A DNA stretch of 64,000 nucleotides from a virus (taxonomy: Duplodnaviria; Caudoviricetes), in the IMG/VR virus record IMGVR_UViG_3300011008_000021, positions 1 to 64,000 of that record. One strand, given 5' to 3'. How positions within the stretch are numbered: the stretch's first letter is position 1; each line of letters begins with the position of its first letter. The notes beneath the pieces are model-generated. The model saw only the letters and a program-made list of their open reading frames with translations. It was not told where the DNA came from and did not search any database. This document shows, in pieces, positions 4,465 through 63,473 of the stretch. The position numbers were made by a program, and so were the translations under genes.

Positions 4465-5240
4465 ATTGAATATTTTAAATTTATTATATACTTTTCAAAC
4501 AACAATTTCTTATTAATATGAGGTATAGATAGAGCGTTATTTAACTCATTCGTTAAGATGTAGATATTTGGAGAAATTGATTTTGAAATATGTAACAATA
4601 CCTTACAAAATAAATCAACATTATAATTATTATCAATAGAATTATCAAAATATAATTTATTGCTAATAGTTAAACAATTTGAAAGATTTGCGGTTTTAAT
4701 ATACTGAAATACCTTATTGGCGAAATTATACATGCTAACAAAATCAACATTTGAAAACTTTATAACATCTCCAGGAGTTCTAGAAATCTCAATAATTAGA
4801 TCAAGCGATCTTTCATCTGCTGTATCTGAAGTTAAAAAAGTTCTTAAATTATCTTTTGTGTATCTTTGTAGATCTAAATTATAGCAACGATTTTTAATCG
4901 TATCCAAAAGTAGATTATTAGAATTTAATAACACAATAAAAATTAGGTTAGATGGTTCTTCCAAAAATTTTAAAATTACATTTTGTTCTTTTACAGAAAT
5001 TTTATCAGAATCTATTAGATACATCTGTGGTAATGGTGATAAATATATTTCTGTTATTTTTTCAAGATTTAACTCCTCAGTTATATCAACAAGTGATAAA
5101 TTAAAATAATCTGAAATATAACTACATACCAGATGCTTTCCAGATCCTTGATGGCCTTCTAATAGAATGGTATGAGGTAAGGTATTAATTGTAAATTGAT
5201 TTATATGAGATATTAGTTTATCTTGATATAAAATATTCAT
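4461..5240 (-). CDS. holB: DNA polymerase III delta'-like clamp-loader subunit
   Basis: PHTILLEGHQGSGK degenerate P-loop, QNVILKFLEEP, LLDTIKNRC (SRC-like). Confidence 0.82.
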   Translation of the reverse strand: MNILYQDKLISHINQFTINTLPHTILLEGHQGSGKHLVCSYISDYFNLSLVDITEELNLEKITEIYLSPLPQMYLIDSDKISVKEQNVILKFLEEPSNLIFIVLLNSNNLLLDTIKNRCYNLDLQRYTKDNLRTFLTSDTADERSLDLIIEISRTPGDVIKFSNVDFVSMYNFANKVFQYIKTANLSNCLTISNKLYFDNSIDNNYNVDLFCKVLLHISKSISPNIYILTNELNNALSIPHINKKLLFEKYIINLKYSI

Positions 5241-6257
5241 TTACTGTAACCTCAACATCTTACAAAAAATTACTTCGATCGTACTTAATGGATTAATATC
5301 ATTTTTTAACATGTTCTTCAATTCTAGAAGTTGATTAGTATAATAATTATAATAGCTTATAGAATTATCAAATAATGTACAACTTTTTAATTCATTTTCC
5401 ATTATCTGAGGTATTTTTGTCATTCTACAATCTTTAAATAAACAGTATTTTGATAAGTCAATACAAAAATCTAAAAACCTGTCAACAAATAATTTTAAAT
5501 CAGTTCCTTCATTATATATCTTGTCAATAATTTCGTACAACTTCTTTTCGTTACCATCAAGTAAGCAGTTCACCAATTCAAAGAAATTAGAATATGAATA
5601 ATCACCTAATGCTTCGATAACATTATTAATAGATAAATCTATATCATACGATGCACATTTTTCTAGATTAGCTATGGCGTCTCTAACCTGACCGTTACTT
5701 ATCTTACTTATATAATTGCAGGCATCGTTGTAATTTAAAAATCCCTCATTTTTACATATATCAATTAATCTTTCTTCAATGTCTTTTGGATTAATTCTAT
5801 TAAAATTAAAAATCTGACATCTATTCTTAATAGTATCAGGAATTTTATTTTTTTCTGTGGTGCAAAAAATAAATATAGTATATGCGGGTGGCTCCTCAAT
5901 ACATTTAAGAAAAGCCTGCCACGACTGAGAAGTTAAGGAATGTGCTTCATCAATTATATAAACTTTATACTCCGAATCTAAAGATCTTTCGTTTGCAGAT
6001 CTGATTATTTCTTTTACATTTTCAACTCCGTTATTAGATGCTGCGTCAATTTCTATTGGAGAACCTTTACCGTTATTAATTTCATTTGCTAATATTCTAG
6101 CACATGTTGTCTTTCCACAACCTGAAGACCCTTGAAATATATAACAGTTTTTAAATTCTTTTAACTGAACTTGTCTTGTCAAAATTTTCTTTATTGACTC
6201 CTGACCAATAACTGTATCAAATGTTGAAGGTCTACATTTCGTAGCTAAAGATGCCAT
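5241..6257 (-). CDS. dnaX: DNA polymerase III gamma/tau clamp-loader ATPase (gamma-length)
   Basis: RPSTFDTVIGQ, GSSGCGKTT, EIDAASNNGV, IIDEAH, AFLKCIEEPP, TIKNRCQ, GQVRDA. Confidence 0.95.
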   Translation of the reverse strand: MASLATKCRPSTFDTVIGQESIKKILTRQVQLKEFKNCYIFQGSSGCGKTTCARILANEINNGKGSPIEIDAASNNGVENVKEIIRSANERSLDSEYKVYIIDEAHSLTSQSWQAFLKCIEEPPAYTIFIFCTTEKNKIPDTIKNRCQIFNFNRINPKDIEERLIDICKNEGFLNYNDACNYISKISNGQVRDAIANLEKCASYDIDLSINNVIEALGDYSYSNFFELVNCLLDGNEKKLYEIIDKIYNEGTDLKLFVDRFLDFCIDLSKYCLFKDCRMTKIPQIMENELKSCTLFDNSISYYNYYTNQLLELKNMLKNDINPLSTIEVIFCKMLRLQ

Positions 6258-15959: not shown

Positions 15960-17069
15960 TTAAATAAACTTCATTATATGCAGGTATTTATTCCAGCTAT
16001 TATCGTGCTTATCTACGATATACTGTAATTCTTTTTTGTCAAATTCTTTATTAATAAGTTTATACAGTTTTTCTTTACAATCTTCAAGATTTCTTTTTTC
16101 ATAAAGGTATTTTGGATTACCTTTTAATTCGTACTCAAAATCTTTCCAAATAGGATATAATGGATTACATTCAAAAGTAATTGCTTCCAGAAGTGTCCAG
16201 CTGACCCAATCTTGATTAGCACAATTAAATACAACCGAAGCTCTACTAAGTAATTCATAATAAGTTAATTTATTTGAAGTATCAACAACTTCAAGATTCG
16301 AACCTTCTTTTGAAGTGATTTTATTCAATCTATCAACAACTTCTTTATTAGAAGTGATAGATCTTGTACTTCTTGGATTAACTAATTTAAATTTAATATC
16401 TGGACAAGCTTCTACCAGGTCAAGAAAGAACATTGGATCTTTTTCATCGTCAAATCTTGATGCAAATAAGACAAATGGTTCCTTATTGAATTTTTTCAAC
16501 CCAATCTCATTAAGTTGTTCTTTTAATCTCCTACTATTGTAAGGAAGACCTACATGAAAAATATTATCTTCCCTTGCAATACCAGCAACAATGCACAGTT
16601 GTCTAAGAATATGAGAACAGGTAAAAATAAAATCAAACTGCTGACCAAATCCTTGTTCAATTGGTCTCATCCAATCTTTCATCTTCCAAGCAAAATCAGT
16701 GTCATCAACTGATTGTGCATGAATGAATGTACCAATCTTAAAATGCATCTTTTTTAATTGACGAATATAAAATAGACTTTCAATGCCAGGATGCCAAAAA
16801 TCTTCAACATACACAACATCATTATCAGTTAATTCACCATTTTCAATTAACTCTATTAATTTCATGATTTGTGATAATGCAAAATAACATCTTCCAGAAG
16901 CATCCAGAACTACACCGTCTTTAATTGTATTACTAATGCTAATACCATCAACTCTTACAAAATCAATATTATTTGTTTTAAAATTATCTTCAGCCCACCC
17001 ATTGATAGAAGACATAAAATATGTATATCTTTCAATATAAGGCTCGATTGGAACATAAAATAATCTCAT
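15960..17069 (-). CDS. GT-B fold glycosyltransferase (GT4-like)
   Basis: VLFASRFDDEKDP, YYELLSRASVVFN..QDWVSWTLLEA..CNPLYP. Confidence 0.8.
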   Translation of the reverse strand: MRLFYVPIEPYIERYTYFMSSINGWAEDNFKTNNIDFVRVDGISISNTIKDGVVLDASGRCYFALSQIMKLIELIENGELTDNDVVYVEDFWHPGIESLFYIRQLKKMHFKIGTFIHAQSVDDTDFAWKMKDWMRPIEQGFGQQFDFIFTCSHILRQLCIVAGIAREDNIFHVGLPYNSRRLKEQLNEIGLKKFNKEPFVLFASRFDDEKDPMFFLDLVEACPDIKFKLVNPRSTRSITSNKEVVDRLNKITSKEGSNLEVVDTSNKLTYYELLSRASVVFNCANQDWVSWTLLEAITFECNPLYPIWKDFEYELKGNPKYLYEKRNLEDCKEKLYKLINKEFDKKELQYIVDKHDNSWNKYLHIMKFI

Positions 17070-17072
17070 TTC

Positions 17073-17537
17073 TTAATCCTCGTATAAAAGTTTATCGTTT
17101 CCTTCAAACATTCCATCTGTATTTAATTCAGATAAAGAAGTCTTACAATCATGTTGAGATAGATTCAAGACATAAACGCAGTCCTTCTTATCTTTTAATT
17201 TTAAAGAAACATTTTCCGGTATAAGTTCAGAATAATTATTTAGTTGAGTTAAAATAACATTATCAAATAATCTATAATCTACGGATGGCAAAAACCTTTC
17301 TGTAACCTCAACTATAAGTTTATAGTTATTTTTTAAATAATCTAACTCTTCATCAGTTGCACTAAGACATATTAGATTATTTTGATTAGCACCAAAATAA
17401 ATAGAAATATTAATAAGATTATTATCATTTAATATTTGAATTAATTTCGATGCAGAAACTACACTACTATCAACAAACAAGGTGAGATTTCCATAATTTA
17501 GATTATGCTCTACCTCAGTGCCTAACCAACATCTCAT
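17073..17537 (-). CDS. hypothetical protein in modification cluster
   Basis: WLGTEVE..GNLTLFV, IYFGANQ; translationally coupled to neighbours. Confidence 0.6.
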   Translation of the reverse strand: MRCWLGTEVEHNLNYGNLTLFVDSSVVSASKLIQILNDNNLINISIYFGANQNNLICLSATDEELDYLKNNYKLIVEVTERFLPSVDYRLFDNVILTQLNNYSELIPENVSLKLKDKKDCVYVLNLSQHDCKTSLSELNTDGMFEGNDKLLYED

Positions 17538-17878
17538 ACTCTATACTCCAGTACACATCCATTTTCATTATCTTCATTTACAGTTATTTCAATATCTCTA
17601 TGACACCCATAAGTATTCTGAATAACTTCTAAAAGGTCATCTGCAATTGATTCGCATGATTTATTTGAAAGTGACGATATATTTATATTATCTTCAATAA
17701 AATGTTTAAACATGATAAACTCTATTTCTCTATCATTATTGAAGACTTCTATCTTTACCTGAATATGTGCCACGTGACGATGTGGATATCTTAGATAACT
17801 TACTTCATCAGGAGCATCTTTGTATTGATGAATAAATTCAGTTTGAGTGGTTACATAAATAAATACTTTCTTACTCAT
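17534..17878 (-). CDS. QueD/PTPS-like T-fold protein
   Basis: H..(F)IH, PHRH metal-ligand motif, DREIEFI, SCESIA, VNEDNENG. Confidence 0.6.
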   Translation of the reverse strand: MSKKVFIYVTTQTEFIHQYKDAPDEVSYLRYPHRHVAHIQVKIEVFNNDREIEFIMFKHFIEDNINISSLSNKSCESIADDLLEVIQNTYGCHRDIEITVNEDNENGCVLEYRV

Positions 17879-17883
17879 ATCCT

Positions 17884-18998
17884 CTATCCTAATAATTCAA
17901 TTAATTGATCTTCAGTACATTCTAAATGATTATTTTTAAGATAATTAAATGCTTCTTCTTTGGAATATGATTTTAGCAAATCTTCATATTCTTCTTTTAG
18001 ATTTGAAGAAAACACATCTAGATACCAAGATCGAAAACTATCTGCATCACACTTCATTGGAACAATACATTCTGGCTTAGCAGAATTGATCATTAACTCG
18101 GATAATCTCTTTTTGACACCTTCTTGATTTTCAATAGGACATTCTCCTATTAATTCATCATGAACTGCAATAAGCAATTTAAATCCAAAATCTCGTAACT
18201 GTTTATCATTATAAACTGCTATCATTGCTCTTTTGGACATCGAAGCTGCACCACCCTGAACTCTAGCATTTACACATTGTCTCTCAGCCTGTGCAATAAA
18301 CCCACCATTATCATGAATCTCTATACCATCTTTCAATGCTTTTGATTTCAGTTCATCAAGTTCTTTTTTAGATTTACATGAATAACACTGCTTCTTATAT
18401 TTATCAATTATAACAGAATTTGTATTAGAATACAAGCCCTTACTTCCAATTAATGGATTAAAATTATCTACGGAAGATCCGTTTTTATTTTTTAAAACAA
18501 ATTTATCTAATTGAATATCAGGTAATCTTCGTCTTCTTCCCCAACAATCTTCAACATATCCATTTTTCTTGGCATCCAACTGAGTTTGATCAATCCACTT
18601 CTTTACCTTTGGAAATCCATTAAAGAAATCATCAGTTACTTTTTGAGCTTCTAAAATATCCTCCTTTGTAGCAGGTCCTTTATGAGTTTTAATTTGATCT
18701 GCTATTGATGCAACACCACGACCGTACATCAATCCTAACAGTAAACTCTTAACATTAGTTCTTCTTTTTTTACCTTCTGGATTCATTGTTCCATCAGGAT
18801 AGAATTCTCTATTGTCTTCATAATTATTATGATAAACATGTGAAGCAATAGTTGCGTATAGATCTTTCCCTTCTTTATAGGCGTTGATCATATTTTCATC
18901 TTGAGCATAATTCGCCAATAAACGAGGTTCCTGTTGCGCTACGAAAAGTCAGATCCAACAAGAATATTTTTCTTTCTTACCTTTACCGACTTCTTAAT
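17884..18998 (-). CDS. polA: family A DNA polymerase, C-terminal part; 19-codon leader 18998-18942 (ATT start) must be joined to 18936-17884 across a 5-nt insert
   Basis: Motif A ILVGSDFS/QQEPR, motif B RTNVKSLLLGLMYG, AERQCVNARVQG, motif C VHDE; RBS AAGGTGA 5 nt before ATT. Confidence 0.88.
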
Positions 18999-19926
18999 TT
19001 AAATCACCTTCTTTCTTATAAATCCATTTTATTATATCATCTACAAAAATATCTTTATCAGCGGATTTTTTTATATTATTTGCTAACTGATATGTATTTT
19101 TTGGTTTTTTGCGAATCCAATAATCACTATTAACCCACCAATCACATGCATCCTTTAAGGAATTAAATTCTTTTATAAAATTAGAATTTTTATCAATACA
19201 AAAAACTTTTTTATAATGACTCTCAGCTGTTATTTTAACTAATTCTTTTTTTCTTGGAAAGTTACCTTTAATCCAACCTTCAGATATCAATTTATCAATA
19301 TCTACCTCTTCAGGTTTTACTTTTATGAGTTCTGATTCCCCTCTATGAAAAAATTTAAATCCTTTACTACTTTCAGAGATTTTTTTTCTGTGTTCTTCAC
19401 TAAAGAACTCACCATTTCTAATATGTTCTTTCATAGTATTACTTATCTTGGATCTTACCTCTTCTGTTTGCATTACTTTATCGTGATAAGATTTATGAAT
19501 TTCATTCTTCATACTATTAAATTCACTCAATATCGATCTAGATTGTTCATAGTAAGCTTGAAAATCAGGTAATTTATCTAAACATTGCTGTTCGGATTTT
19601 GGAAAATTAAAATGACCAAAAATCTTGAATATTGCACAAGCATTTCCTTTCTTATATAAGGAGTTATCTGGAGAACAGAGAAATAAATAATAGTGGGCCA
19701 GAACGTGATCCTTATATAAAAGATTAACTCTATTAGACCTGGTATTATCTAATTTTTTACCAACTGACTTATAATAGTATCTTGGAATAATGTGATGAGA
19801 CTGAGTCTTTCCTTTTTGATATGTTCTGTTTAAATTACAATTAATTAATTGAATATACTTATCTAGATAACTATTCTCAATACAAATATTATTTTCTAAT
19901 AGAAAATCTTTGATATCTAAAATCAT
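18994..19926 (-). CDS. free-standing HNH homing endonuclease with NUMOD3/NUMOD1-like repeats
   Basis: QSHHIIPR..NRVNL..DHVLAHYYL; SEEHRKKISES; KVFCID..FNSLKDA; lies between the polA halves. Confidence 0.85.
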   Translation of the reverse strand: MILDIKDFLLENNICIENSYLDKYIQLINCNLNRTYQKGKTQSHHIIPRYYYKSVGKKLDNTRSNRVNLLYKDHVLAHYYLFLCSPDNSLYKKGNACAIFKIFGHFNFPKSEQQCLDKLPDFQAYYEQSRSILSEFNSMKNEIHKSYHDKVMQTEEVRSKISNTMKEHIRNGEFFSEEHRKKISESSKGFKFFHRGESELIKVKPEEVDIDKLISEGWIKGNFPRKKELVKITAESHYKKVFCIDKNSNFIKEFNSLKDACDWWVNSDYWIRKKPKNTYQLANNIKKSADKDIFVDDIIKWIYKKEGDLN

Positions 19927-19937
19927 ATCTTTCTACT

Positions 19938-19989
19938 CCTGTTAATAAAAATCTGTTTCAGTATAATTTAGCAGATTTTTATTAACAAG
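19938..19989 (-). promoter_or_regulatory. RBS-overlapping hairpin upstream of the HNH gene
   Basis: Perfect 16-bp inverted repeat 19940-19955/19972-19987 extending into AGGAG. Confidence 0.6.
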
Positions 19990-20000
19990 TTATGATTTTT

Positions 20001-21596
20001 TTAACTAAAGATAAACTCTATTTTTTTGTCATCAATTTGATTAATTGTTAAAATCTGTAAATCTTCGATATAATCACCTACACTCAAATTTTTAGCACTA
20101 ACCCAATTCTCATTAGATAAAACTTCATCATCACTTGCTAGAATTAAGGAGTTGTTGACTAATTCTACATCAAGCTCAGTATACCCTGCTGTAAACATCA
20201 TTCTTATTTCATTATTATGTGATGGTATATTCTGAAGATTCGGATCTGAAGAACTAAATCTTCCAGTATCAGCACCAATCTGATTAAAATGAGCATGAAG
20301 TCTGTTATCTTTTTTAGAAATACATTCTGGTAACTTGTCAATATAAGTATTAATAAGTTTTAACAAACCTCTGTTTTCTAAAATTAATTTACAGATATTA
20401 TATTGAGGATATTTATCACTTATTTTCTTTAAAATTTCTTCCCCTGTTCCTCTGGGAGATTTTTTCTCTATTCCTTCTTCAATACCTAAAATATCATATA
20501 AAAGAATTGCAAGTTGTGTAGGACTTGCAACATTTATTGGATCCTCAAGTTGCTCAACTTTTGATTTTCCGAAACCTTTACCTGTTTTTTTAAGAGGTTT
20601 TAAATTTGCTTCCTTTGTTAATTTCCAATTATTTATTTGATCAGTGTATTTGGATAATTCCGCCTTGATTTTTAAATTACATTCATCTAAAAGTTTATGA
20701 TATTTATTACTTAATCTTTTTGAATAATCTAAATCTAAACATATACCTGTTAATTCCATTTCTGCTGAAACAATTACAATAGGCATTTCTATATTCATAA
20801 AAAGATTAAATAATTTTTCATTACCTGGTCTGTTGAATTCTTTAACCTGATATTCATATAACTTATATGTCATAAAAGCATCAGTTGCAGCATACAAGGA
20901 AAAGATTTCTGGATCTACGATCGCATACTCTATTTTTTCAAATAGATGTTCTATATCATATTTTTCAATCGAAGAATCAATCTTTGTAATATATTGTTCC
21001 TTTAACCCAGCTCGTTCATTCTCATTTAGAATTCGAGCTCCTATCATTGTATCCCAATATATTGGCAATTCAATATCACAGGTACATTTAACTACTTGAT
21101 AATCAAATTTTCCATTATGCATTATAATCTTAACATTATTATCAATTAATCTTTGTAGTTGTGTTTGTATCTGAAATTCAGTTATTTGGGGAATATCTTC
21201 GAACTCGTTTAACGACTTTAATCTTTTATGATGAACAGGAATATATAAATTTTTACTACCTGATGTATATAAACATAAACCCATTAACTTGCAAGTTAAT
21301 GGGTCCAAGCTATTATCTGTCTCTGTATCAACAGCAATAATTCCATTTTTTATGGCATTATCTATATAAGATATAAAATCATTATATTCATATATAACAG
21401 ATGTATTTTCTTTATATGAACCTAAAATTCTATTAACTTCAGAAGAAATTGCACTCAGTTTTTGAGTGATATCTACTTTTGAACTGAGTGCTTTCTTAGT
21501 TTTAGGTACTATCGGCTTGTTTACTTTTTCTATAACTTTTTTTGTTCTAGAAACTGTCTCTTTAACAGAAAATTCTTCGCCCCATAAGGAAGACAT
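20001..21596 (-). CDS. polA: family A DNA polymerase, N-terminal part (3'-5' exonuclease, thumb, start of palm)
   Basis: VDTET, HNGKFD, YAATDA, INVASPTQL, TGRFSSSDPNLQNIP. Confidence 0.92.
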   Translation of the reverse strand: MSSLWGEEFSVKETVSRTKKVIEKVNKPIVPKTKKALSSKVDITQKLSAISSEVNRILGSYKENTSVIYEYNDFISYIDNAIKNGIIAVDTETDNSLDPLTCKLMGLCLYTSGSKNLYIPVHHKRLKSLNEFEDIPQITEFQIQTQLQRLIDNNVKIIMHNGKFDYQVVKCTCDIELPIYWDTMIGARILNENERAGLKEQYITKIDSSIEKYDIEHLFEKIEYAIVDPEIFSLYAATDAFMTYKLYEYQVKEFNRPGNEKLFNLFMNIEMPIVIVSAEMELTGICLDLDYSKRLSNKYHKLLDECNLKIKAELSKYTDQINNWKLTKEANLKPLKKTGKGFGKSKVEQLEDPINVASPTQLAILLYDILGIEEGIEKKSPRGTGEEILKKISDKYPQYNICKLILENRGLLKLINTYIDKLPECISKKDNRLHAHFNQIGADTGRFSSSDPNLQNIPSHNNEIRMMFTAGYTELDVELVNNSLILASDDEVLSNENWVSAKNLSVGDYIEDLQILTINQIDDKKIEFIFS

Positions 21597-21615
21597 GATA
21601 ATACCTCATATATAA

Positions 21616-22473
21616 TTAATAATATGATCTAACCGGTCTTGCAAGTTGCTGACCATTTTGTTCTGACATATTAACTCCGAAATTTGGTTGAGTGTACACC
21701 TGAGGAGGTACCGACTGCTGAGATTCAACTGGAGGAGCCTGATACTGAGGATTATTTACAGGAGTATTTACATAAGCAGGTTGAACATACTGAGAATTAT
21801 TTACAGGAGCAACATTATTATTCCCATTAGGAATCATGTTCGGAGTTGGATTATTCTGCTGTCTAACAGGAAGCTTACCTGTCTGGACGTACACAGCCAG
21901 ATCTTCATAAGACCTTTCGGGTACTACAGTACCTGCAACCTTCCAATTTTCAAACAGTGAAACATCTTTTACATATACATCATCTCTATAGACCTGTTTA
22001 TTAAGATTAGGAACAATTTCATATCTTGTTCTCTGATCTCCTACTTTTCCATGTCTAATAATCTTACAGATTACATCAGACAAAGGACCATAATTATCAA
22101 TGTAAGACTTTAACTGATTTGCATAGGATACACTTCTTTCCCAAACTTTTGCTTGAGGAACAATATTTCCTGACTCATCTCGAACATACTGAATTAAATG
22201 AATGTACATTCTTTGAGTAACTGGAAGATTAGCAGCACACATAGGACACTTATTAAGATCATCCTTTGCATCTCTAATACAGCTAACTCTTCCTCTATAT
22301 TTACCATCTTCTCTAATTTCATGTGTTGTAAGAATATCAAAATCGTTAATGCTGTCATGCATAATTCTTACAACTGCTTCATCGTTATCATTCTTTAAAC
22401 TGAAAAATCCTACCTGATACTGACCAGTTCCATTACTACTAAAATCAATGTCTTCAAATCTAACTTGTGCCAT
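21616..22473 (-). CDS. single-stranded DNA-binding protein (gp32-like)
   Basis: FFSLKNDNDEAVVR, H..C..CPMC Zn site, KIIRHG..TRYEI, low-complexity Q/P/N tail. Confidence 0.7.
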   Translation of the reverse strand: MAQVRFEDIDFSSNGTGQYQVGFFSLKNDNDEAVVRIMHDSINDFDILTTHEIREDGKYRGRVSCIRDAKDDLNKCPMCAANLPVTQRMYIHLIQYVRDESGNIVPQAKVWERSVSYANQLKSYIDNYGPLSDVICKIIRHGKVGDQRTRYEIVPNLNKQVYRDDVYVKDVSLFENWKVAGTVVPERSYEDLAVYVQTGKLPVRQQNNPTPNMIPNGNNNVAPVNNSQYVQPAYVNTPVNNPQYQAPPVESQQSVPPQVYTQPNFGVNMSEQNGQQLARPVRSYY

Positions 22474-22510
22474 TTCTAATCTCCTAATATCAATTTACTA
22501 TTAAAATACA

Positions 22511-23491
22511 CTAATTTTCTACATTTGTCAACCTAAAATATAATCCATTTTCATTCATTAAATTTTCTACATAATTTCTATCTAAATCATTAATATCTCT
22601 TCCTTCCGGTATATCTAATATGGTTATTATACAATTATTTTTAAAATAATTTTGAAATCTATTTCTTCCTTTATATCCTGCATTGTCTCCATCGAACGCT
22701 AATACATAATTTCTTATACCACTTTTTTCAAGTAATTTATATTGATATTCAGTTCCTGTACCAAACAATGCAACCGCTGGTATTCCATAAGACCAACAAG
22801 TTAAAGCATTTATTTGAGATTCGCATATTACTACATATGGATAATTATTATTAATAATAAAATTTAATAAATAGACAGGTTTTTCAACATTTTCTGGAAT
22901 TACAAAAAATTTTGAAGAAACACTTCTTTTAGTTATAAATAATAGATTTCCATTAATATCCCAAACTGGAAAAGTAATAGCATTTAATTCTTTATCATAT
23001 CCAATTTTAAATTTATTTATAACATAAGGTGTTAATTTTCTTTGTGTCATATAAGGATGGTAAAAATTAAATTTATCTAATACTGAAAAATCCATAAATT
23101 CAGTATTTGATTTTTTTTTGAATTGAATTTCATCTAAAAACAATCCTTCATCTAGAAAAGTATCACCAAAATTATCTACCAGCCAATCTTTTCCTAAATT
23201 ATCGTCACCATCAAGACAATGACCAACCATTGCATATAACGGTACTCTCTTACCACAAGCAAAACAATGCATGGTACCATAATATATCTTAGGATCATTA
23301 AAATCACAAAATATATGACAGCTTGGATGATTCTCTTGACCATTTGAATGATAAGGACAAGTTATCTTAATATCATTTCCTTTTTGGTTACCTATATATT
23401 TAAAATAATTATTATTAGAATCACTTCTTAATTTTAATAATATATCTCTTATAGGTGTTCTTATTACTCTATTTCTAATAATTAAATCCAT
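22511..23491 (-). CDS. dnaG: DNA primase (CHC2 Zn finger plus TOPRIM)
   Basis: CPYH..E.HPS..HCFAC; ICESQINA; AFDGDNAG; RDIND. Confidence 0.88.
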   Translation of the reverse strand: MDLIIRNRVIRTPIRDILLKLRSDSNNNYFKYIGNQKGNDIKITCPYHSNGQENHPSCHIFCDFNDPKIYYGTMHCFACGKRVPLYAMVGHCLDGDDNLGKDWLVDNFGDTFLDEGLFLDEIQFKKKSNTEFMDFSVLDKFNFYHPYMTQRKLTPYVINKFKIGYDKELNAITFPVWDINGNLLFITKRSVSSKFFVIPENVEKPVYLLNFIINNNYPYVVICESQINALTCWSYGIPAVALFGTGTEYQYKLLEKSGIRNYVLAFDGDNAGYKGRNRFQNYFKNNCIITILDIPEGRDINDLDRNYVENLMNENGLYFRLTNVEN

Positions 23492-57558: not shown

Positions 57559-60500
57559 TCAGTCAGTAATCTCACCTGCTACAATAAGGTCTGAATTCAG
57601 AACCTTAAGATCGTACAGAGTTGACCAACCTTGTGATGTACCACCATCAGCATACTGAAGAAGCTGAGTAGGAACAATAGGCATGTAAGGTGCATACACA
57701 GCAACTGAACTCATTAAGTCGTCACCGTTAACACCAACTAAATATCTGTTTGCAGCAATTGCTGGTGAAACAAAGACCTTTAACCCATTGAGGGTACCTG
57801 CAAAATATGGACCGTTGATTGATCCAGTAGGAGCTGCGTTCCATCCATCAATAAATGTAAGGATAGGAATAATATTAGATGCAACTACCATATAGTTAGG
57901 AGCAACATTAATCTTTAATATGATTCGCTACATCATATTGGGAATTTTTATTCCCCACTTATTTTCATAAGTGATGAGACTATATCTTCATCTTTTCGGA
58001 TGTGACTTACTTCCACTTCGCTTGAAGTGTACTCCCTTTCGGGATAGTCGTTGGGGCTGAATCCCATTAGGATTCCTGCCTGCTGATTATCCAATCCTAC
58101 AACTTTTTAAACCATCATATATTCATTACTGATATATTGTGGTATGTAGGCTCTAAGGATTTTCCAGCATATCAAGTCATTTATTATTCAAACATGTTTC
58201 CATGTAAGCGAGACTTGTTTACCTAATTGTAAACTTGATTTATCAATATATTTGTTATATATTATGCTGCTAATAATAAATCAGTTAATCTCTTTGTCTT
58301 ATCGTAGATAAGTTGTCTTGCAATCTCAACTATCTCAGTAAATCCTGCATAGTGATCTCTCTTGCTAACACCAACAGGAAGTGTCTTGCTCCATGCAAGT
58401 GCGGTCTGTGCAGTTCCTGCTGTTTCATCAAGTAACTGAACTACTTCTGTATCAATTTCATATGAAAGCTGTCCAACTGCCTTCTCAGCTAACTGATCTC
58501 CAAGATCAAATCCATAATCAGTCTTAGCTTGGAATGCTGCCATTTGGCTTGCGTATCTTACGTTTATATCGTTTCCATATAAACTCTATATATTACTACA
58601 TAGGCGGGACTATATCATATTCTTAATTTCTTTTACCAAAACTAAGAATCCATGCACTTCGATTCCACTTAGAATCTACTCTACTTTCTTGTTCACTTAT
58701 GTCTTTCTCATAAGATATGATTTCGATAGTCTCTGAACTTTACTTTCATAATAGAAAGTCTTAGCTGCTGATTGTCCTATTAGCATGGCAATTCTAATAG
58801 GAGTTTCCAGCAATTCACATGGTTTTTCATAATTTATTTCATTAAACTCAATTTGGATAAATCACTTCATAATTTAAATTATTAAGAGTTGCATAATTTC
58901 TTTTTTGAACATCCCTTTTTGTCCAAACATCTATAATCATATTAGACCAATCTGTATTATCTTTCTTTAACTGCTCTAATAATTTTAAATCGTCTGAATT
59001 ATTTTCATCAAATGGATGTCCACCATGGGATGGGTGATAATTAACTTCTATAAATTTATCTTCTGACTTAATATAAAAATCACAATCAAAAGGGTATCTC
59101 TCATCAGAATATTGTCTAACAATATCTGACTCATCATACATTTCTAATAAACACTTGTATAATTCTTCTTCAGGTTTTGACTTATTAAAAGAATTATTCT
59201 TTTTCATTGTTTCAAAATGCTGATTCCAAATATCCTTATTCTTTAAAGGATTTGTTACACCATAATTCTTTAACAATGTCTTTGTATATTTATCTCTACT
59301 TTCAGGAACTAAATTAGGTGATTTTTGACCATATCTTTCCAACATAGTATTTTCATATTTCTGTTGAGCTTCTTCGGTCTTTTTAGAATCACTTATTTTC
59401 TTCCTTATCTCTGGACTTTGATTGTGTTCTTTATAACCATATCTTTCTAAACTTGTTTGTTGTGCTTTTTCATAATTATTATAATTAGCATCTCCATATC
59501 TATCAAGCTTAGTTTGTTTTACCTTTTCAACATTTGTTAAACTCTTTTTACCATATCGTTTCATCATGGTTGAATTACGAGCTTCTCTAAAATGTTTCTT
59601 TTGTTCATCGGTTAAATATCTTCTACCCATATTTACTCTCCTAATAGTAAAAATATATAAATGTAGTAATCTAAAGAATTTAGGACTTCTTTAAAAACAG
59701 TTTGCAACCTGCTGTCCTACATTATAATCATATTATAACACAATTATAATGATTTGTAAATTGAGATTTAATTTATAAAATTAAGCTACAGCTTTTAAGT
59801 CTTTATAGTAGACTGCGATTCTTCTGGCCTTTGCAATTAATGGAATGCTCTTCATTTCAGCCTTAAGCATTGGAAGATCATTTTGAGGAATTACAACATT
59901 ATCGTAAACATAAGCAACTTTAACAGTATCAGTAGCTCCAATAGCAGTACCAGTACCATTTGAAAGAGTTAATGTTTTTCCATCGGTTGCAACAGTAACT
60001 GATGCATCATCTGCAACAGGAACTGCAACTCCAGCAGATGTGGTTATAGAAGTAATTCTTGCTTTTGATGCTGTATCAGGTCCATTATAAACTGGGAACC
60101 AAGAAGCAGTAACAGCAGCATTGGCACCTGTGAATGATTCTACCACTCTTGCAGCAGTATAATTAGGATCAACATTTCCTAATTTAAATGGGCTGTTAAA
60201 GACATCGCCGTTAGTGGTTTCGCCCTTTGTAGACCCAGCCTGATATTCAATCAATCATGTTAATCATAAATATTCTTAATATATAACTTTATAATTTAAA
60301 TTATTTTCTTTAGCAACTCTTTGTTTTTCAACATCTCTCACTGTCCATGTTTGAATAGCATTTTGATAAAATTGAGATGTTTTAGCTTTTTCTTTCCACT
60401 CATTAAGTTGCTGAATACATTCTTCATCATCTGGATTAAATGGTTTACCACCATGTGTCCAATGAGCATTTAACTCTATAAATAAATCATCTTCTACAAT

Positions 60501-63473
60501 ATAGAAATCACAATAAAATGGATATCTATCCTTATCCTTGTAATTTCTTAATATTGTTTTATTAGAATAATCTTTTAATAATGATTCATATAATTCATTT
60601 TCAGGCTTAGATGTATTAAAAGAATTATTCTTTTTTCTTGTCAAATACTGTTTATTAGTTTTAATAATGAGTCTATCTTTAGGAAGGTGTTTACCTTTTA
60701 AAGAAATGGAATTAGATTCTCCAATTCTCCTTTTATGTTCCTCAGATAAGTGTTTGCCTTTATTATAACTCGTAGAACCATATCGTTCTATTCTTGTGTT
60801 ATTGGAATGTTCGGAATAACTTCTAACACGCTTATCCGTATCCTTGGTTAAACCTTTATTCCAAACACTGATCTCATTAGTAGAATATCTTTCTTTAAGT
60901 GTTTTACTTATTTTTTCTTTTACTTCTTTTGAAACAGATTTACCTTTATTTGAAGGACTTCTACCAATACGTTTTTTTCTGTTTTCTTCCTTGTGTTTTT
61001 CAGAAACACCTTTTATCCACCCTTCATTTAGATATCTCTGTAATTCATTTGGATAAATTCTTTTTTCCAAATCATCCTTATGAATAACTATTCTACCTTT
61101 TTGAGTATTTGAACATTTTTCTGATTTATTCATTTGTTGAATTCTCCATAAAGAATATATAATTTAAAATTATTACATTATAAGTTATGGCTTATAATGT
61201 TTGAGGTCATATATCAGTAATATCAAATTCTTAATATTACTATTAAGTTCAGACTATATCATATTCCTATATCGTGTTAACCTTTATAGGAATCCATGCA
61301 CTTCGGATATTCCATAATATCCTACTCTACTCACTTACCATATAAAGTATTTCTCTTTATAATCCGTTTTCGATAGTCGTTGAACCTTCCTATTGATTAA
61401 TCATATTATAATTAGTGAAATTCGTCAATAGGCTTGGCTTCTGATTGTCCTGCTGGCTAATACAGGATATTCCAGAAATTCACATGGTATTTTTTCATAT
61501 GCATTACTGCATACGCATACTGAATTTCAATATGTGACATATCCAGACATAGAACTCATCAATTATGTTACGAATATATCGTTTCCATATATTCTCATTA
61601 TATTACTATAATGTTCAGACTATATCATTATCCTATATTCTATTACCGTTTATAGGATACCACACATTTCGAAAATACTTATTTTCTACTCTACTCACTT
61701 ACCATATAAAGTATTTCTCTTTATAATCCGCTTTCGATAGTCGTTGAACCTTCTTCTTTTTAAAGAAGCTTGGCTGCTGATTGTCCTAAATACTATGTCA
61801 TATATATATAGGGTTTTCCAGCAATTAATGTGGTTTTACATATTGTTTAATTTATTTATCTATAATAAGTCCGTTTGGATATATAATTTTAAAATTTAAA
61901 TTATTGTTTCTAAAAGTTTGAAGTTTTTTTGGATCTATTTCGGTCCACCATTTATAGATATTCCAATATCTACTTCTTGGACCTTTCTGTTCAGCTTTAG
62001 ATCTAATTTGTTCTGCTTCTTTTATATGTTCTTCATTATTAGGATCAAAAGGTCTTCCATTATGTTCTATTGTTCCATTTACTTCAATAAATAAATCTTC
62101 TGAAGCAATATAGATATCACAATTATATGGATAACGAACATCTCTATATGGATGAATTACATCTTCTTCACCATATTCTTGTATCAACTCATTTATTAGA
62201 TCTTTTTCTACTTTTGATGAGTTGAAGCTACTATTTTTCTTTTTAGTAGAATATTCTTTTTGTTTTGCAAGTTCCCAATCTTTTACAAAACATTCATGTC
62301 CTTTTAGTTTATTGCTAGCAGACATCAAAGAAGCATTTGTTTCTTTAGTTAAGCCTTTATTCCAAGGTACATGACCCATCATGGATTGAGATTGCTTTAA
62401 TTTTCTCTCTTCACTTGCAGGTATTCCTTTATTCCAAGGTTCTTTTCCTTTTCGATAAAGACTTAATTTTTTAGAAATAGTTTCTAAACTATCATTTGTA
62501 TCCTTAGTTAACCCTTTGTTCCAAGAAACATAATTTCCTTTTTGTAATCTTGTTTCCTTTGTTGCTTGTCCATTAGCTTTAACTCTTTCATCTGTTTCAG
62601 CAGTTAAACCTTTATTCCAAGGATTAGATTTAAAGGTTCTTCCTGGATAAAAACCAAGCGGTATATCATCACCAGGTTTTAACTTGATAGTTCTAACTCC
62701 ATTAGTGAAAAATTTTATTTTATCCCCTTCATAAATATCTTCTATCAACTTAAATTTAAATTTCACAATAAATAAATTAATATATGTATCATTATATATT
62801 ACTACATAATGCCCCTGAGGTTAAGGGTGAACAATTACAAGATCGTTGGCAATTAAATTCGGAAGTGCGACATTTGTTAAATTTAAACAAAATTTCTTAA
62901 ACATTCCCATGTCTGCTCTCTGAGTAGCAGAAGAAGCATCAAATGCCTCGTTTAAGAAATCTTGAGTGTTCTTTAAGCAACGAGCCAGTGTAATTTTTCT
63001 ATTATTATCCATCTTTTCTCCAAGATGTGATTTTCCGTAGACTGACTCAGCAATTTGAATTCTCTTTTTATCAAATATGTTACGAATTAATCGTGTCCAT
63101 TAATTCTCTATATGTTTCCATATAGTTCAGACTATATCATATACCTCAATTGTTTTAACCTTTTAAGGTACCCCATCACTTCGAAAATACTATTTTCTAC
63201 TCTACTTTGTTATTCATATAAGTATTTCTCTTATATTATCATTTCGATAGTCGTTGAACCTTCCGTTCAAAGAACGGCTTGGCTGCTGATTATCCCTGGC
63301 TAAAGGATTTTCCAGCAATTCAATGGGTTTTATTAAACTAATGTTTATTTATTAATAACTAAATTTTTATATATTATTTCAAAATTTAAATTATTATCTC
63401 TAAATATTAGTTCCACATATTACTATGTGGAAGCTCAAAAAATTTAAGCTTCAACTAAATTCTGATTAGCCAT
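57559..63473 (-). CDS. major capsid protein (T4 gp23-like), 453 aa, six exons: 63473-63446, 63071-62824, 61559-61530, 60251-59805, 58549-58288, 57905-57559
   Basis: Exons sum to 1362 nt and join in one frame: LPNLIANDLVIVHP|MSSMSGYVTY|IEY, AKARRIAVYY|SQMAAF, LSYEIDTE, KR|FAPNYMV, VYAPYMP (gp23-like motifs). Confidence 0.92.
57906..58287 (-). mobile_element. group I intron 5 of the capsid gene (382 nt, no ORF)
   Basis: P1 GAGAU/GUCUC with U-G; core UGCUGGAAA, AAUCAGCAGG, CAACGACUA, AAGAUAUAGUCU; ends AUG (omega-G). Confidence 0.9.
58848..59630 (-). CDS. intron-encoded Vsr-like (EDxHD/PD-(D/E)XK) homing endonuclease with YG repeats
   Basis: Repeated T..E/KRYG units; SKPE..RYPFDCDFYI..FIEVNYHPSHG. 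Confidence 0.8.
   Translation of the reverse strand: MGRRYLTDEQKKHFREARNSTMMKRYGKKSLTNVEKVKQTKLDRYGDANYNNYEKAQQTSLERYGYKEHNQSPEIRKKISDSKKTEEAQQKYENTMLERYGQKSPNLVPESRDKYTKTLLKNYGVTNPLKNKDIWNQHFETMKKNNSFNKSKPEEELYKCLLEMYDESDIVRQYSDERYPFDCDFYIKSEDKFIEVNYHPSHGGHPFDENNSDDLKLLEQLKKDNTDWSNMIIDVWTKRDVQKRNYATLNNLNYEVIYPN
59732..59760 (-). promoter_or_regulatory. sigmaA-type promoter inside intron 4, upstream of the endonuclease ORF
   Basis: TTTACA, 17 nt, TGnTATAAT. Confidence 0.65.
60252..61529 (-). mobile_element. group I intron 3 of the capsid gene (1278 nt, ORF 3' of the core)
   Basis: P1 CAUAU/GUAUG; P4 covariant UUUCUG/CAGAAG; UUCAACGACUA; AUGAUAUAGUCU; ends UUG. Confidence 0.9.
60276..61133 (-). 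CDS. intron-encoded Vsr-like homing endonuclease with NUMOD3-like repeats
   Basis: NKGK..SEEHK repeats, WNKGLT; SKPE..RYPFYCDFYI..FIELNAHWTHG. Confidence 0.8.
   Translation of the reverse strand: MNKSEKCSNTQKGRIVIHKDDLEKRIYPNELQRYLNEGWIKGVSEKHKEENRKKRIGRSPSNKGKSVSKEVKEKISKTLKERYSTNEISVWNKGLTKDTDKRVRSYSEHSNNTRIERYGSTSYNKGKHLSEEHKRRIGESNSISLKGKHLPKDRLIIKTNKQYLTRKKNNSFNTSKPENELYESLLKDYSNKTILRNYKDKDRYPFYCDFYIVEDDLFIELNAHWTHGGKPFNPDDEECIQQLNEWKEKAKTSQFYQNAIQTWTVRDVEKQRVAKENNLNYKVIY
61560..62823 (-). mobile_element. group I intron 2 of the capsid gene (1264 nt, ORF 5' of the core)
   Basis: P1 CCCU/GGGG; AAUUGCUGGAAA, AAUCAGCAGCCAAG, UUCAACGACUA, AUGAUAUAGUCU; ends UUG. Confidence 0.9.
61852..62766 (-). 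CDS. intron-encoded Vsr-like homing endonuclease with WNKG repeats
   Basis: Four (P/S)WNKG(LT) repeats; SKVE..RYPYNCDIYI..FIEVNG...H. Confidence 0.8.
   Translation of the reverse strand: MKFKFKLIEDIYEGDKIKFFTNGVRTIKLKPGDDIPLGFYPGRTFKSNPWNKGLTAETDERVKANGQATKETRLQKGNYVSWNKGLTKDTNDSLETISKKLSLYRKGKEPWNKGIPASEERKLKQSQSMMGHVPWNKGLTKETNASLMSASNKLKGHECFVKDWELAKQKEYSTKKKNSSFNSSKVEKDLINELIQEYGEEDVIHPYRDVRYPYNCDIYIASEDLFIEVNGTIEHNGRPFDPNNEEHIKEAEQIRSKAEQKGPRSRYWNIYKWWTEIDPKKLQTFRNNNLNFKIIYPNGLIIDK
63072..63445 (-). mobile_element. group I intron 1 of the capsid gene (374 nt)
   Basis: P1 GAAGCUU/GAGCUUC with U-G; full P4/P7 core motifs; ends UUG. Confidence 0.9.
63345..63407 (-). pseudogene. 3'-terminal remnant of a deleted endonuclease ORF in intron 1
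   Basis: IFRDNNLNFEIIYKNLVINK* versus intron-2 ORF end TFRNNNLNFKIIYPNGLIIDK*. Confidence 0.75.

Follow-up and report, generated by a model that had tools for sequence, protein, structure and literature searches.

A stop-led five-nucleotide coding gap in catalytic motif A of a split phage DNA polymerase gene, a candidate site of programmed translational bypassing

How does a phage make its DNA polymerase when the most conserved motif of the gene is interrupted by a stop codon and a change of reading frame? This question is raised by the polymerase gene polA of a virus of the Caudoviricetes (Duplodnaviria), represented by IMG/VR record IMGVR_UViG_3300011008_000021. The DNA studied here, referred to as the window, comprises 64,000 nt (positions 1 to 64,000 of that record) and carries polA on its minus strand. 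An initial annotation of the window described a 5-nt, stop-containing insert within catalytic motif A of the polymerase (18950-18934) and offered two mechanisms for its removal, a translational hop or an excision from the RNA following group I intron rules. Here we confirm the insert at these positions and describe stop-led gaps at the same site in related split polA genes. We propose that the 5 nt, TAGCG, are probably a coding gap skipped by programmed translational bypassing, i.e. by a +5 hop of the ribosome over the stop codon, a reading that is based on sequence comparison.

Direct reading of positions 18950-18922 of the minus strand gives GAC TTT TCG TAG CG CAA CAG GAA CCT CGT, with GAC at 18950-48, TTT at 18947-45, TCG at 18944-42, TAG at 18941-39, the dinucleotide CG at 18938-37, CAA at 18936-34 and CAG at 18933-31. 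The coding gap (18937..18941, minus strand) consists of the UAG plus CG. Upstream of it the gene reads NILVGSDFS*, downstream QQEPRLLANYAQDENMINAY... (QQEPRLLANY...), and the two parts are in different frames. QQEPR is read in the -1 frame with respect to DFS, so that skipping exactly 5 nt yields DFSQQEPR, and with TAGCG removed the canonical polymerase motif A is obtained. Its spacing equals that of uninterrupted relatives such as L007 (DFSAQEPR) and L022 (DYSQQEPR) and of 30 other distinct unsplit junction sequences. The initial annotation was therefore right about the restoration of D-F-S-Q-Q-E-P-R; its statement that the rest of polA is intact did not hold, as the gene is split about 1 kb upstream of the gap by a homing-endonuclease cassette into an N fragment, an HNH gene and a C fragment. 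No ATG, GTG or TTG lies between the UAG and QQEPR (GUA GCG CAA), and hence QQEPR has no separate start of its own. A start of the C fragment at TTG 18918 was considered and rejected, since QQEPR would be lost and the relative L021 has TTA in place of this codon.

Related loci were surveyed with a profile of the 68 residues following the gap, which retrieved 80 loci from IMG/VR. A pattern scan of metagenomes contributed one new lineage, L103 (TCG TAG TCA), and no further copy of the 5-nt form. The gap-bearing split lineages number 13, the window and L103 included. In all 13, a stop codon (TAG, TAA or TGA) stands immediately 3' of the Ser codon of D[FY]S; none of the 32 distinct unsplit junction sequences has a gap, motif A being read straight through. 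The gaps are 5, 6, 7, 8, 10, 12 or 14 nt long and represent all three phases, so that no single frameshift or readthrough can serve them. The proposed landing triplet is the same as the take-off codon in 6 of the 13 lineages, belongs to TCN in 10 and matches the take-off codon in at least two of three bases in every one. In 200,000 simulations, for which the base composition of the gaps was used, such a match was never reached, a figure that is not to be taken as a strict probability, the lineages being related. A hop from the Ser codon to this triplet would restore D[FY]S followed by (Q/A)QEPR in all 13 lineages, with the spacing of the uninterrupted genes. This pattern is the signature of bypassing, in which a peptidyl-tRNA leaves its take-off codon with a stop in the A site and pairs again on a landing codon that suits it, and decoding resumes at the codon after.

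Landing triplets identical to the take-off codon are found in the gaps TCT TAG TCT, TCT TAG G TCT, TCT TAG AAAA TCT, TCT TAG CGAGAAAG TCT and TCG TGA GT TCG. Landing on TCA is predicted for TCG TAA G TCA, TCG TAG TCA, TCT TAG G TCA and TCT TAA A TCA. The other gaps are TCG TAA GAGAAGC CG, TCG TAG TTG in the L008 clade, which is one substitution away from TCG TAG TCG, and TCG TAG CG in the window. In the latter the take-off UCG and the landing GCG (18939-37) match in two of three bases, GCG overlaps the UAG, and the gap differs by one base from a perfect TCG TAG TCG. An internal control is provided by L066 (IMGVR_UViG_3300028797_000104). Its polA C fragment (from 2501) has five in-frame TAG codons at Gln positions and hence reads TAG as sense, and its gap begins with TAA, not TAG. 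Two split forms, L045 and L062, have no gap. With respect to the initial annotation, the alignment of homologous loci that it called for revealed a stop-led insert of 5-14 nt after the Ser codon in the 13 split lineages. Of the conserved TCG-TAR-NN that it anticipated, the exact form TCG TAG CG recurs in the closest relatives of the window, L018 to L021, and the other lineages vary in take-off codon, stop and length.

These closest relatives speak for the reality of the junction and for selection on it. TCG TAG CG CAA CAG is identical in L018, L019, L020 and L021, four contigs from different samples, of which two stem from ENA assemblies and two from Logan runs. Comparison of the window with L018 gives a number of synonymous substitutions per synonymous site (dS) of about 1.7, i.e. 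synonymous sites are near saturation. The ratio of nonsynonymous to synonymous substitution rates (dN/dS) is 0.06 for the N core, 0.06 for the first 68 codons after the gap and 0.11 for the mini-ORF (open reading frame) that ends at the gap. Low values on both sides indicate that both sides are translated and under purifying selection. Between clades, substitutions near the gap keep the amino acid or replace it conservatively (TTT/TTC, GTT/GTC, CAA/CAG, CCT/CCC, CGT/CGG, TTA/CTT). Moreover, the window and L018 share a 55-nt block around the gap without any difference, with flanks that are only 55% and 76% identical. Identity over 55 nt despite near-saturated dS points to a constraint on the nucleotide sequence itself.

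Within this block lies a predicted RNA hairpin (18928..18964, minus strand) with a 9-bp stem of UUCUUGUUG (18964-56) and CAACAGGAA (18936-28), which encloses the D-F-S codons and the gap and has a free energy of -10.6 kcal/mol (RNAfold, duplexfold). The stem averages -6.9 in gap-bearing split lineages vs -4.5 in unsplit ones (Mann-Whitney U test, p 0.012, phylogeny not corrected). TCG is the rarest Ser codon of this phage (3.1%), and TAG terminates just 2 of 101 long ORFs in the genome. The phage also has a tRNA-Ser(UGA) of its own, which could be the hopping tRNA. The rare TCG, the rare TAG stop, this tRNA and the stem all fit selection on the site. Outside the window, nine tRNA genes are clustered at 90346-100709 of the record, among them tRNA-Ser(UGA) and tRNA-Ile(UAU). 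The latter reads AUA, and the cluster holds no suppressor tRNA. A reassignment of TAG was considered and rejected: treating TAG as sense leaves the coding density unchanged, the genome is without a suppressor tRNA, and the gap is out of frame.

From the arrangement at the locus we infer the following course of events. Ribosomes would start the C fragment at AUU 18998 behind a Shine-Dalgarno (SD) element, probably coupled to termination of the HNH gene. They would make a nascent chain of 19 residues, (I/M)KKSVKVRKKNILVGSDFS, and reach UCG (18944-42), where peptidyl-tRNA-Ser is paired while the A site holds UAG. Instead of termination, the peptidyl-tRNA would unpair, the mRNA would slide by 5 nt, and the anticodon would re-pair on GCG (18939-37) with two G-C pairs and a mismatch at the first position. 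CAA would then enter the A site and decoding would resume, giving the canonical motif A ...ILVGSDFSQQEPR..., and the hop-joined product would contain the peptide NILVGSDFSQQEPR. The C fragment would finally assemble with the N fragment, probably via the intein-like tail and the basic leader described below, into the only DNA polymerase of the phage. The gap itself, by analogy with the MobA/gene 60 element of T4, probably keeps the endonuclease from cutting its own carrier and leaves the catalytic motif unchanged. The hop from UCG over the UAG onto the near-cognate GCG was the first of the two options in the initial annotation, and it gains support from the stop and landing pattern in 13 lineages. 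Its likening to T4 gene 60 is strengthened as well, since the site sits in a cassette of split gene and homing endonuclease like that of T4 gene 39-mobA-gene 60.

Several observations weigh against bypassing. GCG is only near-cognate and overlaps the stop, so the hop in the window could be of low efficiency. The landing-match statistics overcount independent events, since the lineages are related, and part of the match could stem from a Ser codon duplicated by the insertion event. In L082 (2470-2510) the gap stands after QQ, CAA TAG CTCTT GAG, and has no matching landing triplet. The hairpin is impossible while the ribosome occupies the take-off codon, and such stems are modestly enriched in the gap lineages. 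Translation of the C fragment would begin at a non-AUG codon. Finally, the record is estimated to be about 66% complete, so that a second polymerase could be encoded in the missing part.

The last two points, together with the fact that the gene is already split, would equally suit a gene whose parts are not joined at all, be it a decaying gene, a dead polymerase with another one in use, or a 19-residue peptide and separately started fragments that assemble. In the L008-type relatives a TTG right after the stop would even allow termination and reinitiation. In the clade of the window, however, no start codon follows the stop, both sides of the gap are under strong purifying selection at a dS of about 1.7, and five contigs share the identical junction. 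Absence of joining would also leave the matched landing codons without explanation, and no DNA polymerase of another family was found in the 100.8-kb record, in which polA is the sole one; we regard this alternative as unlikely. A -1 ribosomal frameshift at UUU UCG with UAG in the A site, followed by reading of GUA GCG CAA, would give DFS-VA-QQEPR (DFSVAQQEPR). It would suit the QQEPR frame, which is -1 relative to the DFS frame, a stop codon in the A site can stimulate slippage in the P site, and the L008-type relatives would gain two residues by plain readthrough (DFS-x-L-QQEPR). Yet C UUU UCG does not conform to the X XXY YYZ heptamer, and re-pairing from UCG to UUC is poor. Across the relatives -1, +1 and readthrough would all be needed and would add 2-5 different residues to the most conserved motif, against a strict D-x-S-x-x-E-x-R spacing in all uninterrupted relatives, and the matching landing codons would again be left without explanation. 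The two extra residues of DFS-VA-QQEPR bear out the earlier remark that neither readthrough nor a -1 shift restores the motif spacing, and frameshifting appears very improbable.

Removal of the 5 nt at the RNA level, by a group-I-like excision in trans (U|CGUAG|CG) by a phage ribozyme or by other RNA editing, was the second option of the initial annotation. The phage does contain group I introns, as the annotation had supposed: Rfam finds five of them at 57956-63366, none at the polA locus, and the gap of the window can be written with U before it and G at its end. The details of the locus do not agree with it. Rfam detects no ribozyme in 17000-23000 (E up to 1), with positive controls elsewhere and in relatives, and relatives lacking the endonuclease leave about 110 nt or less between the polA halves. 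The U/G rule fails for TCT|TAGAAAATCT|CAG in relatives, where no register ends in G. A genome search for the guide that the excision would use found no sequence like GGAAAGTC or GCGGAAAGT in or near the introns. Furthermore, the rule of a stop plus a matched codon would have no role in splicing, and we give this possibility very little credence. Still less probable, to the point of being negligible, is an artefact of assembly or sequencing or a rare defective variant: the contig is derived from a metagenome, but four more contigs, obtained from different samples with different assemblers, carry the identical junction, and 12 further lineages have homologous gaps. Programmed bypassing is thus the reading that we favour.

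The gap is one part of a larger rearrangement of polA. The N fragment (20001..21596, minus strand; 531 residues; stop TAA 20003-20001) comprises the 3'-5' exonuclease and the first part of the polymerase up to ...IRMMFTAGY, and Pfam finds DNA_pol_A_exo1 and positions 20-148 of the DNA_pol_A profile in it. The rest of the C fragment (17884..18936, minus strand) begins at CAA 18936-34, where decoding would resume, includes motifs B and C, ends with the stop at 17886-17884 and covers positions 159/167-380 of the same profile. Between the two halves lies a free-standing HNH homing endonuclease gene of the T-even Mob family (18994..19926, minus strand; 310 residues). It matches PHROG 655 'homing endonuclease' (3e-16) and PHROG 12434 'HNH endonuclease' (6.5e-9) and, weakly, NUMOD3. 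In a tblastn search of GenBank phages only homing endonucleases of T4-like phages matched, including mobC of Yersinia phage PST with 28% identity over 80% of the query (E 1e-7 to 4e-7), and the HNH motif matches the T4 mobA remnant (E 0.002). A megablast search against GenBank phages gave no match.

The gene is divided in relatives without the endonuclease, too. In L018-L021, which have lost it, the stop of the N fragment falls within the SD of the C fragment; in L009 and L011, likewise without it, about 110 nt separate the polA halves. Relatives that lack the endonuclease are still split, which indicates that the gene is truly split and that the endonuclease comes and goes. At the split site it belongs to the HNH family in the window, L082 and L103, to GIY-YIG in L048 and to LAGLIDADG in L059 and L079. 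A group I intron across the HNH gene (splice after AGT 20004 and before CAA) was rejected as well: Rfam shows no match there, L011 leaves about 110 nt and L018 overlapping ORFs, and the spliced product would be without the catalytic Asp.

The C fragment opens with a short segment of its own (18942..18998, minus strand) made up of the start codon AUU (18998-96), the leader KKSVKVRKKN, the strand ILVGSDFS and the take-off UCG; the frame from AUU reads IKKSVKVRKKNILVGSDFS and then UAG. Its SD, GAAGGTGA (GAAGGUGA), lies at 19004..19011 (minus strand), 5 nt upstream of the start codon, and the same element stands before ATG, GTG or ATA in relatives. The AUU overlaps the UAA stop of the HNH gene, which suggests translational coupling together with a weak independent start. 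The start is AUA in the closest relatives and AUG or GUG in other lineages. A leader M(K)KS[VI]K.R... stands at the same position behind the same SD in relatives. Gene-60-type bypassing involves a nascent-peptide signal in the exit tunnel; the basic leader is kept 8-18 residues before the take-off codon, but is also present in L062, a gapless split form.

An alignment of 17 lineages delimits a 59-residue C-terminal extension (CTE) of the N fragment (20004..20180, minus strand). This tail, which unsplit polymerases lack, is shared by all split relatives, with the pattern ..DE[VI].T..GWK....L.VGD.I.. and a dN/dS of 0.4-0.7. It is predicted to form a small all-beta domain (AlphaFold 2, predicted local distance difference test score 84). 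Among solved structures its profile matches the N half of the gp41-1 split intein best (E 0.01); the T4 gp39 C-terminal extension ranks third in the whole PDB (E 0.2; hhalign probability 67%). In a Foldseek search with the tail model inteins rank first, at an E of about 1, which has no significance, and tblastn with the L052 tail matched no cultured phage. The tail may be a degenerate half of a split intein, reused to hold the two polA fragments together; we regard its kinship with the T4 element and its intein origin as leads, not findings. A functional split intein was rejected, as tails and leaders in the alignment are without catalytic residues and insufficient in size.

Further mobile elements interrupt the polA genes of relatives (L008, 1060-1293; L018, about 4992-6065; L007, 2840-3997). 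Rfam identifies one group I intron among them, which sits elsewhere in polA and separates ...SSSNPNL from QNIPSH. An intervening sequence with an ORF of 247-272 residues (Pfam NUMOD3 in L018) lies between ...SLLLG and MYGRG. The polA of the window has neither the group I intron nor the NUMOD3-type intervening sequence. A crude genome-wide scan for other gaps of the type codon-stop-same codon was too noisy at 29% GC, and its sole clean candidate, CCT TAA CCT at 62823, was discarded as an exon/intron-endonuclease boundary. It lies in the region of the group I introns, where an exon-like ORF ends and is succeeded by an ORF for an endonuclease that has NUMOD-type repeats (61852-63099, minus strand).

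If bypassing takes place at these sites, very short hops are used in nature, and the natural variants of 5-14 nt form a compact set for the dissection of take-off and landing rules. The window has the shortest gap of the family and is the extreme case, with a mismatched landing triplet that overlaps the stop. It would also support the view that bypass gaps are a general means of self-protection of homing-endonuclease cassettes which leaves catalytic motifs undamaged. For genome annotation it is a warning, for such polymerases get called broken or as three ORFs. To our knowledge, bypassing is naturally utilised in very few systems, i.e. T4 gene 60 and its topoisomerase homologues, the byps of yeast mitochondria and, as a candidate, the phiHau3 terminase. 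A search of the literature in full text revealed no paper describing bypassing in a phage polymerase, and a review of 2016 (PMC5009743) knew of no natural in-frame stop-hop.

The closest parallel is the T4 gene 39-mobA-gene 60 element, whose 50-nt bypass was reportedly treated by Huang in 1988 and by Bonocora in 2011. As in T4, the gene of an essential replication enzyme is split inside a catalytic metal-binding motif, with a CTE on the first half, an N-terminal extension (NTE) on the second and a Mob-type HNH endonuclease between them. The T4 element is a split gene with conserved CTE and NTE (Manning and Atkins, 10.1101/2022.08.31.505936). In both systems the endonuclease is lost or swapped for other families in relatives, some split forms have lost the gap, and the gap may outlast the endonuclease. 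In both, the gap falls shortly after the start of the second half, next to invariant catalytic residues; a stop follows the take-off codon at once, and the landing triplet matches it, in the window in two of three bases. The tail of the window polA weakly resembles the gp39 extension. The two differ in their target, motif A of polA and not the Toprim motif of a topoisomerase, and in the length of the gap, 5 nt (5-14 nt in the family) vs 50 nt, with no similarity in gap sequence. A gap of 5-14 nt leaves no room inside for a take-off stem-loop or an internal SD, unlike gene 60, and the 5-nt gap is too short even for the SD. Take-off is from Ser UCG/UCU and not from Gly GGA, and the nascent chain has 19 residues vs 46. 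In the window the landing triplet is near-cognate and overlaps the stop, and in polA the bypass is predicted from comparison of sequences.

Bypassing of this kind has its nearest mechanistic relatives in synthetic constructs in E. coli, for which +5 and +6 hops over stops are described (Weiss, Dunn, Atkins and Gesteland 1987, as cited in PMC10732093 and PMC5009743). There, too, the peptidyl-tRNA lets go of a codon that precedes a stop and pairs anew 5-6 nt downstream, where the triplet is a matching or a similar one. Those hops occurred at low level in engineered reporters, whereas the arrangement of the window is conserved in nature and in an essential gene. The terminase gene of Streptomyces phage phiHau3 has 10-nt inserts with UUA, in the accounts of Smith 2013 and Antonov 2023 (PMC10732093). 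Like the polA gaps, these are short (about 10 nt), lie in an essential phage gene and combine a slow A-site codon with a proposed landing codon and flanking RNA structure. The trigger in phiHau3 is a rare sense codon tied to the bldA tRNA of the host, in polA it is a stop; moreover, the phiHau3 gene, as described, is not split and has no homing-endonuclease cassette.

Fractured genes, in which split inteins are combined with a free-standing endonuclease (Dassa 2009, PMC2677866), resemble the polA locus: the break in the phage replication gene falls within a conserved motif, and an endonuclease is encoded between the two parts. The gp41-1 match of the polA tail comes from this very set. Unlike fractured genes, polA has a tail and leader without Cys/Ser1, the block B His and the terminal Asn plus nucleophile, and with about 70 residues together they are too small for a Hint fold, so that protein splicing is not expected. 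A bolder reading, which we put forward tentatively and consider possible rather than probable, would unite these systems. The polA cassettes and T4 MobA/gene 60 would be members of a single old superfamily of homing-endonuclease cassettes that arose from degenerate split inteins, each with a portable bypass module of stop plus landing codon that serves as an immunity patch in a catalytic motif. The window would be its minimal working form, with a 5-nt hop onto a non-cognate landing triplet that overlaps the stop, perhaps with assistance by the tRNA-Ser(UGA) of the phage.

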